64,000 bases of DNA from Eledone cirrhosa. Taxonomy: Eukaryota. Below the pieces are notes generated by a model. That model ran no database searches and was not told the DNA's origin. It was given only the letters and a program-made list of their open reading frames with translations. Each line of letters starts with the position of its first letter. Positions within the stretch are counted from its first letter, which is position 1. Below are positions 28,345 to 64,000 of the stretch, piece after piece. The stretch covers positions 65,038,001-65,102,000 of the forward strand of contig OZ024747.1 in NCBI GenBank assembly GCA_964016885.1, read 5' to 3'. Both the position numbers and the translations under genes were made by a program.

Positions 28345-31300
28345 GACCATGCTGTAAAATGGAGGGGTAGAGAGGGCCCTTGAGTCTAGTAAGACATCCT
28401 CTCTAGTGCTGGTGGCACAAATAAAAGCACCCAGTCCATGCTGTAAAGTGGCACTGATGTTAGGAAGAGCATCCAACCAGTGTATCAATGCCAAAACGCT
28501 TATCAGCACAGCAACAAATAGCAACAACAACAAAATATGAAGACGTCGCATCTCAGAGTTGCAACACTTAATGTTGGCACCCTCAAAGTTAGATCTGCTG
28601 AAATAGCGGAGATGCTGGAGAGAAGGCATGTGGATGTGTGCTGTGTGCAAGAGGTGAGATGGAGAGGTGCCTCTGCAAGACTAGTCGTAGGCAAACATCT
28701 TAGCTATAAGCTTTTCTGGGTAGGTAAGGATGATGGGTTAGGGGGAGTAGGCATTTTCCTGGCTGGGAGATGGATCAATAAGACAATAGAGGTAGTTCGA
28801 GTTAGTAATCGAATAATTAAGCTTAGATAGTTGTAGGCAGGAGACTACTGACAATCATCTCTGCCTATGCTCCTCAAGCAGGCCTAGGCAAAGATGAGAA
28901 AGACTGCTTTTATGAGCAAATTTTACAAACAACCGCAATGACAGAGGACGGAGACATCGTTATGCTAGCAGGGGACTTCAATGGTCATGTTTGACAGCTC
29001 CAGGATGGTTACACTGGGGTACATGGTGGGCACAGTTACGGCTCAAGAAATAAAGAAGGAGTGAGACTTCTTGAATTTTGTGATGCAAGTACACTGACTA
29101 TTTGCAACACAAACTTCCAGAAACCTGCCAACCACCTAATAACCTACAAATCTGGTGAGCACATAAGCCAGATTGACTTCTTACTAGTTAGGCAGTGGGA
29201 CAGGCAGATAGTGTCTAATACCAAGGCATACCCTGGTGAAGAATGTACCCCCACAGCATAGGTTAGTCGTTAGTGATATCTCAGTAAGCAAGAGATGGAA
29301 TGAAACATACAGGAAGGTGTGGAGAAGAAAGGTCTAGAAGCTAAAAGACCTTTCACTAAAATACAAATTTATGAAAGCCCTTCAAGATGTGTATGACGAA
29401 AAAGAAGACGATTTAGAGACATATGACATAGATAATAACTGGAATTTCTTACGTGACAACTTACTGCAGGCTACTGATGAAACTTGTGGCTGGAGCAGAG
29501 CTCCAACCAGACATAGAGTGACCTGGTGGTGAAACAGCACAGTAGATAAGGCCATTAGAGACAAAAGACTAGCATGGAAGGCTTGGAAAAAGGGTGGGAG
29601 TAGGGAAGAATATACAGCTGCTAACAGAGAAGCTAGCCATCAGGTGTACTTAGCACGCAGGGGGGCTGAGAGTTTGCCAATGTTCTGCGACGGGAAGATC
29701 AGAGGCGTGCGGTGTTCCACATTGCAAGGCAGTGTGTCAATGCAAATCAGGATGTTGTTGGAGATAAATATGTCCGAGATGATGCCGGTGTACTTAGTGT
29801 CACGAATGATCAGAAAAAGGAGGCCTGGAAATGTCATTATGAGAGACTGATGAATGTGGAGAACGAATGGGAGAGAGAGAAATTAACCTCAGTACATCCG
29901 ACAGAGGGACCAGCTATTGAGATTGATGAATATAGGGTCCAAGAGGCGATTAAGGAAATGAAAAATGGTAAGGCTGCTGGACCAAAAGGAATAGTTGCTG
30001 AGATGCTGAAGGCATCAGGGGACATAGGCACTAAACTGGTTGCACGCATCATCAATCAGGCTATATATGGTGGTGTCATACCCAAAGACTGGTGCAGCAG
30101 TATTCTCATAAATTGCTACAAAGGTAAAGGGAATGCTCTGGAGTGGAGCAATTATAGGGGTATGAAACTGATGAATCAGGTTATGAAAGTGGCAGAAAGG
30201 ATATTAGCACAACTAATTAGAGAACGGGTCAAACTAGATGAGATGCAGTTTGGTTTTGTGCCTGGGAAGAGTGCAACAGATGCCCTCTTCTTGGTGAGAC
30301 AACTGCAAGAGAGGTTCTTAGAGAAAAATAAGCCACTATAATTAGCCTTTGTTGACCTAGAGAAGGCCTTTGATAGGGTACCCCGATCTGTCATCTGGTG
30401 GTCCCTAAGGAAACTAGGTGTTGAGGAATGGCTTGTGAGGACAGTGCAAACTTTGTACAAAGGTACTGTCAGTAAAGTCAGGGTAGGAATGGAGTCTAGT
30501 GAGGAATTCCAGATACAAGTAGGAGTACATCAAGGTTCGGTCCTCAGCCCGCTCTTGTTCATTATAGTCCTCCAAGCCATAACAGAGGAGTTTAAGACTG
30601 GCTGTCCATGGGAACTTCTCTATGCTGACGATCTGGTTCTTATAGCAGAATCAGTAGAGGAGCTAGAGAATAAATTCTGGCTATGGAAACAGCAGTTGGA
30701 AGCAAGAGGACTGAAAGTGAACCTAGCTAAGACAAAAGTGTTGATGAGTAGAAAAGAGGACAAAACTCTGATTCCGTCAGGGAAATGGCCATGTTCGATA
30801 TGCAGAAAAGGAACTGGCATAAAATGCACACAATGCAGATCCTGGGTACACAAGAGATGTAGCGGGATAGCAGGCAAACTAACAGATAGGGAGAAATATG
30901 TATGCAGTAGATGTACAGGGAAATTAGACAGTAGAAGTCGCATTGATAGACACATTTTTCAAATGCAGGCGGGTGCTATAGAAGTGGTGGATAGCTTCTG
31001 GTACCTAGGAGATCAGATTAGCATGGGAGTGGGGTGTTCCGAGGCCATAGTATCTAGAATAAGGACGGGCTGGAAGAAGTTTAGGGAGCTGCTTCCTCTG
31101 CTGACAAAGAAGGGTTTCTCCCTGCGTACGAAAGGCCGATTATATGATGCCTGTATGAGGAGCGCGATGTTGCATGGTAATGAGACATGGGCAGCGGCTG
31201 CAGAGGATATGCGACGGCTGGAGAGAAATGAGGCAAGCATGCTCCGTTGGATGTGCAGTGTCAATGTGCGTGAACGACCCAGCATGAATGAGTTGAGAGA

Positions 31301-31596
31301 GAAACTGTGTCTGAGAGGGATAGAATGTAGTGTACGGGAGAGGAGACTGAGGTGGTATGGACATGTGATGCGCATGGAGGATGACCGATGGGTAAAGAAG
31401 TGCCAGGAAATGCCAGTTGAAGGAAGACGTGGTAGAGGTAGACCACGAAAAACATGGGCGGAGGTGGTGAGAACAGACCTCAGATCGCTGAAGCTCACTG
31501 TGGAGATGACGAAGGACCGTGACAAGTGGAGAGATGCTGTGCTGAATAAGACCTGTCCCACCCTTGCAAGCAGGGAAGAGCAGATGATGACGTAAA

Positions 31597-32736: not shown

Positions 32737-33812
32737 TTTGTGTCTCAGTCATTGATGTTATTTAACTGGAAAGTTTGTTGAAATGAATATCAAGCCACTA
32801 CCTGCAGCATCAGATATTCAGGATGTATCGGAGGGTTCTTGCTGTTCCCAGCAAGCATGCCTTTTGAAGTGTTTCAAAAAGCGCGGCGGGGCCAATTTTC
32901 TTTAACCATCCCTGGAAACTCTTTGAGATAGTACCTAGTGCGCCTATGACAATCGGGACCACTTTGACTTCATGGCAGTTCCAAATCCTTTTTAACTCCC
33001 ACTTTAAGTCCTGCTATCAGTTAATTTTCTCCCTCTCCTTCTCTTGCACTCTCGTGTCGAATGGGCAGGCCACATCCACAATCAGGCAGATCTGTTTTCC
33101 TTGTCCAAAACCACCAGGTCAGGTCTATTGTGTTCCAGTTTCTTGTCCGTCTGTATCCTAAAATCCCATAGCACCTTCACCTGATCGTTTTCTATCACCG
33201 ACTCTGGCTTATGCTCATACCACTTCTCAGAATGTGGTAAATTGTTTACTTTGCATAGGTGCCAGTGGATCACCCTGCCCATCACATCATGTCTCCAGCC
33301 TTTGTAGCGAGTCTGGGCTAGGTGTTTACACTCAGATACAATGTGAGCCACAGTCTCCTCTCTCTCTCCACAGATCCTGCACAGTGGGCTAGCCTCCTCC
33401 TTGTAAATGTGGTGTTTCAGCCACTTCGTTTTGAGGGCCTGCTCTTGCTCAGTCATTAGCATTCCTTCTGTAGCCTTTTTAAGGTCTCCTCTTTTCAACC
33501 AGTTCCATGTCTGTGGATCTCTGAATTCAGTTTTCTCAAAGAAGAACCTTCATGAAGAATCCCTATGAAGGTTGTTCTTTCTCCCTGTTGTTATTTCCTC
33601 CTTGGACATCCCCTGGTCTATTGTCCTCTCTTTCAGTACAATTCTGAGCATTGGCTCCCTACTATCAGTCACGTATTTGTGTAGGTTGTTTTTCTCCATC
33701 TCAACACAGTCGTCTATGCTGATAAGACCTCTTCCACCTTCAGATCTCCTTAAGTAGAGTCTATCGACATCACTCCTCTTGTGGAACATGTTGTAGATAG
33801 TCAATAGCTTCC
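32737..33812 (-). mobile_element. 5'-truncated R4/Dong-like RLE LINE with (AAT)n tail
   Basis: RLYLRRSEGGRGL, CRICGEREETVAHIVSEC knuckle, RHD, RPDLVV..D REL motifs; (TAA)n at both ends. Confidence 0.9.
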
Positions 33813-33836
33813 TATTATTATTATTATTATTATAAG

Positions 33837-34077
33837 GGCGGTGGATTGGCAGTATCGGTAGAGGGTCGGACGCCATGCTTTCCAGCATAGTTACGTCCCT
33901 TTACGATCTGAGTTCAAATCCCGCTGAGGTTGACTTTGCCTTTCATCCTTACAGGGTCGATAAAATAAAGTACTAGTAATGCACTGGGTAATTGCTGGCC
34001 TTGTGCCTAAAGTAGAAACAATTATTATTATTATTATTATTATTATTATGATTATTATTATTATTATTATTATTATT
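33837..34077 (+). mobile_element. SINE A full copy with (ATT)n tail
   Basis: Family sequence. Confidence 0.9.
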
Positions 34078-49514: not shown

Positions 49515-50432
49515 TATTCTTCTGGTTTTATAATTTCACAAATTTTTGCCAATAGAGAGAGTCAGTTTCTAACATAGTTACAAGATTCTCTCATTGGAAT
49601 TTACACAACATCAACTAGGTAGATATATATGCATGTCTGCATGCATGCATGTGTAGATATGGATGTTATTGTATGTGTGGATGTGTATGGTTTGAGTTGT
49701 ATGTGAGTATGTGTATATGCTTTGTATCTGTACATGCGTATATGCAGTTATTAGATGCAAAATTTTTGGAATGTTTTACATATTTTTACTATTCCATTAA
49801 TGGATTGTACTTGTAATTTCCTAACTAGTTGTCTTCTTTCTGATCCTGTGAAGCCTAGCTTCTCAAGATTTGTATTGAAGCAGTTACTAACATACCCCAG
49901 AGCCCCAATAATCACAGGCATAAATCTGAAGGTGTAATCAGGGTGGAGAATCTGCAAATTTCTCATCAATTCTGCATAAATATTCTCCTTTTCGCTAATC
50001 TTTGATATTATATTGGCATCTGCTGGGCAGCTAACTTCCACTACTGTGCATGCTTTCTTTTCCCTGTCCCATATCATAATATCTGGTCTGTTATGCCTGC
50101 ACTTTATTGGGGTTTTTACTGGAACATTCCACCATCTTACTGGAACATTCCACTCTTTCATATTATGTATATGGATGTCTTCCACATTGCTGTAGCTTTT
50201 AATGTGTTTATTATTGGTGCTATCTTTTCTACGGATTGCATTGTACAATGTTTTGGCCACTACATCATGCCTCATAGGTAGATAGTACGGCGATGACATC
50301 TATGGGCAGCTGCTTATGACATGGGTGACATCTTCGATGTTAATTCTGCAGAGTCTGCACTTGTTATCACATCTAGGTGTTTTGCCTGCATCCTTATCTA
50401 TTTTGTGAATCAGGTATTTCGTGTTGATTTCC
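49515..50432 (-). mobile_element. RLE-type (R4/Dong-like) LINE 3' fragment in (TATG)n
   Basis: CCHC remnant, RHD, RPDIMIWD..VEVSCPAD REL endonuclease, 3' UTR ending in (CATA)n. Confidence 0.85.
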
Positions 50433-56821: not shown

Positions 56822-56913
56822 CACACACACATCTATATGAATGTATGCATATATATATATATATATATATTGGAAAATGTGTGATATCCTTGGTACAGTT
56901 AGGTATATTTGAA

Positions 56914-57263
56914 AAAAAGGAAAAGAATGACTTCACTTGTAGTTTTAAAACAATTTAATTTTATAATATTATGATTTGGTAGATCTAGTAAGTTCTTTGT
57001 TAACTTTGGTGGGAAGACTTTTAAAGATTCCTGGTTAACTTTCTCACATTCGTCAATGGTAATTGTCAAACTGATCTCAGTTTGACAATCACCACCGATG
57101 AATGCGAGAAAGTTCTCCAGGAAAGTTAACCAGGAATCTTTAAAAGTCTTCCCACCAAAGTTAACAAAGAACTTACTAGATCTACCAAATCATAATATTA
57201 TAAAATGAAATCAAATTGTTTAAAACTACAAGTAAAGTCATTCTTTTCCCTTTTTCAAATATA
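56914..57263. repeat. (TA)n-embedded long palindrome with decayed hammerhead
   Basis: ~160-bp arms centred at AAACTGA-TC-TCAGTTT. Confidence 0.9.
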
Positions 57264-57304: not shown

Positions 57305-57515
57305 TTATTTTGATTCTGGTTCCTCTCTGACACTTGTTTCACTGTTATGTTGGAAGCCAATGCTCAGCCTTGCAGCATTATTTTCAGGTTTTTTAGGAAG
57401 TGCAATAAAACGGGATGGTGCTGTAATATTGAACTTGCGATGCATAGCTTCATCCATGATGCCAAACAGACAGCTATCCAAAAACATTTCCGCAAAGTTA
57501 CTAAATTCCACCAAA
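57305..57515 (-). CDS. CFAP65: probable last coding exon of cilia- and flagella-associated protein 65
   Basis: Acceptor TTTTCATCTTTCAG, open to TAA; LVEFSNFAEMFLDSCLFGIMDEAMHRKFNITAPSRFIALP resembles the vertebrate CFAP65 C-terminus (LPAFANL.EALLEN.IQNIL.EASRGE..LTSRPRVIALP), recalled from memory and not searched. Confidence 0.6.
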
Positions 57516-63017: not shown

Positions 63018-63204
63018 ATATATATATATCTATATATGAAAAATTAGAATTGGTGCTCTGAAATAGTGATGTATATATGAATGTATATACAGTGTATTTG
63101 GCAATACACTGTATGCTTCATTAAAAGCATTTTGAAGACCTTACGCTATTGTTTTAAAGTAGTGACTATGTCACTTATTTCTTTTTCCAACAAACAAAGG
63201 GAGA

Positions 63205-63252
63205 TAAGCTGACAGATCTCTGTTTCATACTGTTGGTATTCCTCAGAGCTTA
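63205..63252 (-). ncRNA. intact type-I hammerhead ribozyme motif (left-arm copy)
   Basis: Reverse complement of 63446-63493. Confidence 0.82.
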
Positions 63253-63445
63253 GCACTCCCCTTGTTTGTTGAAAATTATGAATGTTGGATTCTTATAGAA
63301 TTCCAGTAATAATCAGGAACTGATTATACAGAGTGGTTTTCAATTTTTGCTGGACCGGCAACCGCTCTGTATAATCAGTTCCTGATTATTACTGGAATTC
63401 TATAAGAATCCAACGTTCATAATTTTCAACAAACAAGGGGAGTGT

Positions 63446-63493
63446 TAAGCTCTGAGGAATACCAACAGTATGAAACAGAGATCTGTCAGCTTA
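63446..63493 (+). ncRNA. intact type-I hammerhead ribozyme motif, GUC cleavage site
   Basis: TAAGCT-CTGAGGA-ATAC(CAACA)GTAT-GAAACAG(AGAT)CTGTC-AGCTTA; stem I extends via CAACAAACAAGGGGAG/CTCCCTTTGTTTGTTG. Confidence 0.85.
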
Positions 63494-64000
63494 TCTCCCT
63501 TTGTTTGTTGGAAAAAGAAATAAGTGACATAGTCACTACTTTAAAACAATAGCGTAAGGTCTTCAAAATGCTTTTAATTAAGCATACAGTGTATTGCCAA
63601 ATACACTATATATACATTCATATATATATATATATTTATATATACATATGCATATATATAATAAATATACATATACACACGCACATATATTATATATATA
63701 TACATATATATATATGTATTCATTCATTTATTTATATATATACATATATATACATATATATATATGTATTCATTCATTTATTTATATATATACATAATAT
63801 ATATGCACATATTTTAAATGTTTTTACTTTTGCCTACTTTCCATTCCGTCAGAGGAAAGAAAAGTTGTAAATCATTCTCTTTTAAAAGACTTTCTTTAAG
63901 ACAACAAAAGTAAAAGAAACTTAACTAAAGCAAAATTTAAATCTCCTCCTTTGCTTCTTTTCGTTTCTTTTGTCCTTGTGTTTTTAATTGAACTTCCTTT

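Follow-up and report, generated by a model that had tools for sequence, protein, structure and literature searches.

Structure of the locus

The window (the whole 64-kb stretch of Eledone cirrhosa DNA analysed here) contains the last matched coding exon of a CFAP65-like gene on the minus strand and, close to its right-hand end, a long hairpin flanked by TA repeats. Its features are listed below, with unit positions referring to a circularly permuted repeat unit with a 317-bp period, taken from another locus of the genome (L003) and numbered from the predicted hammerhead cut.

57338-57514, minus strand: last matched coding exon of a CFAP65 (CCDC108)-like gene, 68% identical to amino acids 1696-1755 of the reference protein P0001
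62829..63039, no strand assigned: left (TA)n-rich microsatellite flank
63040..63338, minus strand: left arm, 299 bp, 96% identical by BLAST to the unit cut from locus L003
63040..63068, minus strand: tail, unit positions ~143-171, present on the left arm only, outside the hairpin and unpaired
63073-63338 and 63360-63625: palindrome arms, reverse complements of each other with 5 mismatches in 266
63186..63273, minus strand: type I hammerhead motif, core at 63246, C17 at 63211, predicted cut after 63211
63337..63629, plus strand: right arm, starting at unit position 168 and reaching ~142 by way of the hammerhead (BLAST against the unit)
63339..63359, plus strand: hairpin loop of 21 nt, element sequence, unit positions ~168-189
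63425..63512, plus strand: type I hammerhead motif, core at 63452, C17 at 63487, predicted cut after 63487
63630..63805, no strand assigned: right TA-rich flank

The first-pass annotation had described a hairpin of ~550 bp with near-identical arms and one ribozyme on each strand, and all of this was borne out: there are two arms with one motif each, and their paired parts differ at 5 of 266 positions. The computed fold energy of the hairpin is -457.8 kcal/mol (z -56). The paired arms were delimited as described, but the element is larger, reaching ~63040 on the left and ~63629 on the right, and the loop, which is carried by the longer-reaching arm only, is itself part of it. The left arm begins at unit position 190, includes the hammerhead and terminates at 171 (site B, with the tail), while the right arm terminates at site A, lacks the tail and grades into (TA)n; the two arms overlap by 2 bp.

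Near-perfect palindromes can arise artefactually, and the read contigs (three runs of one sample) over most of the hairpin are short multi-copy pieces. It is nevertheless hardly credible that the locus is an assembly chimera formed by fold-back, or that a single copy was locally duplicated in inverted orientation, given the five differences between the arms, the unlike outer ends, which match the two fixed ends found across the family, and the flanking DNA, which is not mirrored past the TA repeats.

Hammerhead motifs

When the 64-kb window was scanned in full with a hammerhead descriptor, on both strands, exactly two motifs were found, one per arm. Both strands carry the type I core (CUGANGA, GAAA and UH) and three stems with stem I open, stem II being weak (4 bp). 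In the plus-strand motif the core is intact (CUGAGGA, GAAA and a UC cleavage site), and stem I has a 6-bp part (63446-63451 paired to 63488-63493) that is separated by a 3x1 internal loop from an 18-bp extension (63425-63442 paired to 63495-63512), a little longer than the ~16 bp noticed at first. Stem II has 4 bp, the loop CAACA and an A-U first pair, and stem III has 4 bp including A15.1-U16.1. The internal loop of stem I and loop II are both present and might form a loop I-loop II tertiary contact.

The usual first pair of hammerhead stem II is G-C. In the present motif stem II was found in the minimum-energy fold and was absent from the centroid fold; thus, the description of the motifs as fully canonical holds for the core nucleotides but not for stem II. 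The predicted cleavage after 63487 agrees with the position of C17 in the descriptor scan. A covariance scan against Rfam brought no family to the gathering threshold, and among the families listed at E<=10 there was no hammerhead; sub-threshold matches to microRNA-type hairpins were discarded as generic.

Host gene and predicted masking

The homology reference, P0001, is an Octopus protein named CCDC108-like. The next exon matched to it (amino acids 1580-1689) lies on the minus strand ~47 kb past the window end and is followed by five more. The insertion, ~5.5 kb upstream of exon 57338-57514, falls inside a ~53-kb intron, and by homology the hairpin appears to sit in the last intron of the CFAP65-like gene. 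The intronic location, previously offered as a possibility, is thus supported by CFAP65-like exons on either side, both on the minus strand, and the minus-strand hammerhead (63186..63273) would be the copy in sense orientation within the pre-mRNA. Mirrored segments in a translated frame at 56899-57189 also point to a small inverted repeat directly downstream of the final CFAP65-like exon. Elsewhere in the window, the reverse-transcriptase (RT) frame of a LINE, presumably RTE-like, is split by a stop (29670-31595), and more non-LTR fragments occur at 33082-33900 and 49751-50299.

The arm layout agrees with the earlier statement that the antisense arm is transcribed first, whichever strand is read. 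In folding calculations, forcing the hammerhead fold cost 79-82 kcal/mol, whether in the whole hairpin or in a prefix ending at the ribozyme, and 1.8-1.9 kcal/mol in a single arm. Masking of the ribozyme by the duplex, as proposed in the first-pass annotation, is therefore a sound prediction, with an in silico penalty of ~80 kcal/mol. Such insertions would also seed long double-stranded RNA within introns, a likely substrate for editing.

A dispersed 317-bp repeat family

The arms belong to a dispersed non-coding repeat, the 317-bp unit described above. Using one arm as the query turned up 2140 first-look candidates; 40 of these were scored, the best matches being 94-98% identical. Exact matches numbered 143 for a 36-nt core and 426 for one downstream 30-mer outside the ribozyme, with 0 for the reversed-pattern control in each case. 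Two samples were drawn: 110 records picked by similarity or exact core, and 86 records that take in the 100 matches at the head of the list of 426 for the 30-mer, a set that was not selected on the ribozyme and was confined to contig C1 and part of C2. Together these 196 locus records collapse to 168 distinct insertions, and the exact-match sampling biases both sets to young and two-armed copies. The same inverted insertion was seen twice at L104 and L106 (G000:C1, 26.514 and 26.517 Mb) and likewise at L203 and L204; these pairs, due to local duplication or assembly duplicates, were counted once.

The unit has a GC content of ~34% (from column counts) and carries a type I hammerhead, in keeping with the non-coding, low-GC units of non-LTR retrozymes. 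No open reading frame (ORF) of at least 90 amino acids lies inside the window element, except one that starts at 63553 and extends into the TA repeat, and an ORF with RT and GIY-YIG domains is absent from it; hence, it is not an autonomous Penelope-like element (PLE). Most family copies span 0.5-1.5 units. Tandem units with consecutive hammerheads also occur in the family, as shown by two exact cores 317 bp apart on contig C4, while the window locus is an inverted pair. One locus on the same contig (L167, G000:C4 near 169.09 Mb) is a multimer of at least 4 units of the repeat with 84-89% identity, possibly an older array or a source-type locus.

Architecture of the insertions

An inverted part was found in 120 of the 168 insertions. 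Among these, 117 were joined head-to-head with respect to their outer ends, 3 were complex and 0 were tail-to-tail. The outer ends fell at one of two sites in 238 of 285 cases, with peaks of 88 at position 142 and 64 at position 168; site A lies near 142 and site B near 168-173, so that the family has two fixed 3' ends ~26-30 nt apart, the interval between them being the tail.

If the two arms chose their sites independently, about half of the inverted insertions would have one A and one B end. In fact, this combination, which leaves a single arm with the tail, was found in 70 of 79 inverted insertions, against an expected proportion of 0.50 (p 4e-13), and in 29 of 35 (p 4e-5) when the sample drawn independently of the ribozyme was counted by itself; AA or BB ends occurred in 9 of the 79. 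These counts exclude 38 of the 117 head-to-head insertions, in which an outer end lay at neither site. By pattern, short stubs of a second arm were present in just 3 of 48 non-inverted insertions, and two-ended priming is therefore not shown to be obligatory.

The arms differ at 5.7% of sites within an insertion and at 7.3% between insertions, and rare variants are common to two arms 6.6 times more often per site within an insertion than between insertions, which fits one template or later conversion. In the window element the arms have two rare variants in common and differ by 1.9%, against the family mean of 5.7%, a low divergence that fits a young insertion. The 103 two-segment junctions showed an overlap of at least 1 bp in 60 cases and a gap in 37.

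A different way to form the second arm would be fold-back of self-primed cDNA or of an antisense template, followed by endonuclease resolution of a hairpin intermediate that leaves the tail on one side. This has been put forward for head-to-head PLE junctions (in the available text of PMC3846280) and for the tail (in that of PMC8557442), and both the rare variants common to the arms and the overlapping junctions speak for it. Fold-back from B-primed cDNA, however, needs the tailed arm always to be the longer one. In the 61 two-segment cases for which upstream reach was compared, the tailed B arm reached further in 23 and the untailed A arm in 37, with 1 tie, and fold-back from B-primed cDNA alone cannot yield the 37 latter cases. 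A version with strand-blind, staggered cutting and resolution would pass this reach test. On balance we consider fold-back a possible but doubtful origin of the second arm, and prefer the priming of both target strands.

A TA microsatellite was present on at least one side of 137 of 167 insertions, a figure to be read against a genome that is itself rich in TA repeats. Convincing target-site duplications were not found in the 167 insertions checked, the 7 candidates all being TA-rich. Head-to-head inverted 5'-truncated copies, partial tandems, an optional ~30-bp tail and microsatellite or AT-rich targets, all features of PLE-mobilised repeats, occur in this family. The window locus is a real feature and very probably of ordinary origin: a non-LTR retrozyme of PLE type that was inserted head-to-head not long ago.

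Position of 5' ends

The 5' ends were counted for 111 arms of the second sample that end at A or B. There was no spike exactly at the nearest cut site: within a 24-nt window around and just 3' of it, 10 of 108 arms stopped, which is about background. One unit further upstream, at the same sequence, 11 of 20 arms stopped, above the flanking rate (p 7e-4), although this sample is small, and 9 arms extend past the second hammerhead upstream. Rather than at the cut itself, most of the distal stops are found 8-18 nt 3' of it, in a place where stem I has self-homology, and stalling or homology-directed joining may contribute to them. Read most simply, many templates had undergone cleavage at the distal hammerhead and still had an uncleaved proximal one. 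Both the coupling of one tail to each inversion and the distal accumulation of 5' ends fit priming from both target strands on partly cleaved RNA.

State of the ribozyme in source lineages and in genomic copies

Two subfamily changes are compensatory with respect to the hammerhead fold. Stem II starts with an A-U pair in 170 and with a G-C pair in 23 of 202 units, and a pair in the stem I extension is A-U in 165 and G-C in 23 of 199. Each compensatory pair probably stems from one event, and in sequence comparison they lend modest support to the hammerhead fold having existed in the source lineages. Among the genomic copies, the core was intact in 73 of 108. The proportion of changed cells was 14% for core C against 8% elsewhere, 8% against 9% for core G, and ~2% against 3-4% for core A and T, which suggests that the cores of the dispersed copies are under little constraint. 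In the set that was not selected on the ribozyme, hammerheads were found on both strands in 25 of 82 insertions, and both cores were intact in 11 of 82. A role of the hammerhead would be expected in the source RNA of the repeat and not at the window locus.

These counts bear on the proposal of a purpose-built self-masking cassette, which was made for the window hairpin before its arms had been recognised as copies of a dispersed mobile repeat. The idea that such a cassette was selected and regulates the CFAP65 pre-mRNA when unmasked could draw on the intronic site, the strong predicted masking, the two intact cores and the low divergence of the arms. Yet the head-to-head layout is the normal insertion product of the family (117 of 120 inverted insertions), two hammerheads or even two intact cores are carried by a fair number of insertions anyway, the cores of the copies decay, and the low divergence fits youth. 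No route to unmasking of the 266-bp duplex is evident. In addition, a hammerhead cut in an intron did not block splicing in mammalian cells, though a faster HDV ribozyme did, according to the available text of PMC2995048 (citing Dye 2006 and Fong 2009). We therefore regard the selected cassette as highly improbable.

Another possibility is tolerance, by which masked insertions persist in introns and unmasked sense-strand copies are purged, with the masking itself serving no purpose. It agrees with the predicted masking of the window's intronic copy and with the depletion of vertebrate retrozymes from introns described in the available part of a preprint (bioRxiv 10.64898/2026.07.22.740005); for the present family, however, it rests on one locus, and we consider it unlikely. 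Masking follows from the head-to-head geometry of the insertion and is likely a by-product, not a regulatory device. That the locus is an ordinary PLE-type insertion in which masking is incidental we hold to be very highly probable.

Relation to Penelope-like elements and retrozymes

PLE ORFs are plentiful in the genome, among them autonomous ones in which RT and GIY-YIG domains occur together, up to 938-1096 amino acids long. A scan with the Pfam GIY-YIG model gave 10595 candidates, of which 150 were scored and 50 loci compared with the unit. No terminal repeat with homology to the unit was seen at any of the 50 loci compared, although 3 of them hold apparently separate copies of it, and a PLE fragment was found near 1 of 168 insertions, beyond a microsatellite. 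PLE families with hammerheads of their own, of a different kind, were considered as the mobilising partner and rejected, having no homology to the unit.

Several other hammerhead-like motifs were seen around these PLE loci. At L261 (G000:C3:308731000-308738999), a tandem array of five copies at a spacing of ~490 bp, located ~3.0-5.0 kb past the ORF end, carries a different hammerhead-like motif with a short stem III, each copy being followed by (TA)n; a relative of this unit is present in L275. A PLE family with a CxxxCxxC-type linker (L094, L095, L097, L267 and L279), which we take to be Neptune-like, has a minimal hammerhead ~380-410 nt past the stop, and two of its copies end in ...TTAAT and then (AT)n ~130 nt after the hammerhead. 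In L092, a tandem pair of hammerhead-like motifs, whose stem II region is unusually long, lies 1677 and 2136 nt past the PLE ORF stop, and another recurring motif with a long stem III region was found in 4 of 20 loci (L266, L267, L276 and L279).

Animal non-LTR retrozymes, as described in the available parts of PMC7229834 and bioRxiv 10.64898/2026.07.22.740005, resemble the present family in having a ~300-bp non-coding, low-GC unit with one type I hammerhead each, in forming partial and full tandems and in co-occurring with PLEs; mussel retrozymes, with units of 350-390 bp, are a molluscan example. In contrast to these, most copies of the present repeat include a head-to-head inversion, while the word 'inverted' occurs 0 times in PMC7229834, and the window locus is no tandem. 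The 2026 preprint (10.64898/2026.07.22.740005), in its available part, derives non-LTR retrozymes from the terminal repeats of PLEs.

Endonuclease-bearing PLEs, in turn, have in common with the family the 5' truncation, partial tandems and an inverted 5'-truncated head-to-head copy (available text of PMC8557442 and PMC3846280), a tail at one end (~30 bp here, 30-40 bp published) and a bias to (TA)n (PMC8557442, same part), and no clear target duplication (both sources). The differences are that the family unit has no ORF, that no matching autonomous element was found among the 50 GIY-YIG loci compared, and that PLE terminal repeats typically carry a minimal hammerhead, according to the available text of PMC6155905, whereas here it is full, with a long stem I.

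The Poseidon element PAc of Anolis is the closest to the mechanism considered below. In the available sections of PMC11167929, RT starts at two adjacent internal sites whose spacing defines the tail, targets are AT-rich, uncleaved RNA serves as a template, both target strands are cut and extended, and a dimer is predicted. Unlike the present family, PAc is autonomous; hammerhead cleavage was unnecessary in vitro and no reads ended at the cut, whereas the 5' ends of the family accumulate near the second cut site upstream. Among the results reported in those sections there is none on a coupling of the strands in their choice of start site, and start-site use showed no strand difference in bulk, which counts against coupled start sites.

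Possible mechanism of insertion

The window element is probably a head-to-head pair of 317-bp repeat copies placed in a TA microsatellite by a PLE RT/endonuclease that primed on both target strands, the details of two-ended priming being somewhat favoured over other routes. A PLE protein may bind multimeric or re-ligated repeat RNA in trans and nick both target strands within (TA)n. One strand would then prime near position 168 (site B, giving the tail) and the other near 142 (site A). Both cDNAs would extend back across the nearest hammerhead, itself uncut, stop variably and have their ends linked, often via short homology. The product would be a near-perfect hairpin in which, on either strand, the antisense arm precedes the ribozyme, with masking as the predicted consequence. 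A related process is the twin priming of L1 elements, in which both target strands prime cDNA, producing an inversion whose inverted and direct parts are adjacent, non-overlapping segments of the template. The present case is similar in that cDNA would be primed on both target strands and an inversion results, but here one and the same segment is represented in both arms, copied from two fixed start points.

It may be proposed, tentatively and with the balance slightly against it, that PLE priming follows an asymmetric two-ended rule: each target strand receives a different RT start site on the same RNA, and the template often owes its 5' end to cleavage at the distal hammerhead, the nearest one being uncut. 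The presence of the tail on one of the inverted repeats has already been published as a qualitative observation (available text of PMC3846280 and PMC8557442). A literature search, mostly among papers outside subscription journals, found neither quantified or so-explained coupling of start sites nor twin priming in PLEs. Likewise, it found no account of an octopus hammerhead repeat in the same mostly non-subscription literature, and supplements may list the family.

In its available part, PMC8557442 treats the origin of PLE inverted structures and of the tail, as well as the function of the hammerhead, as open questions. The short, numerous and young insertions of the present family give counts that bear on all of these. 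If true, the asymmetric rule accounts jointly for the head-to-head inversions and the one-sided tail, and the rule of one tail per inversion, together with the distal accumulation of 5' ends, makes predictions that can be addressed in the in vitro system of PAc.
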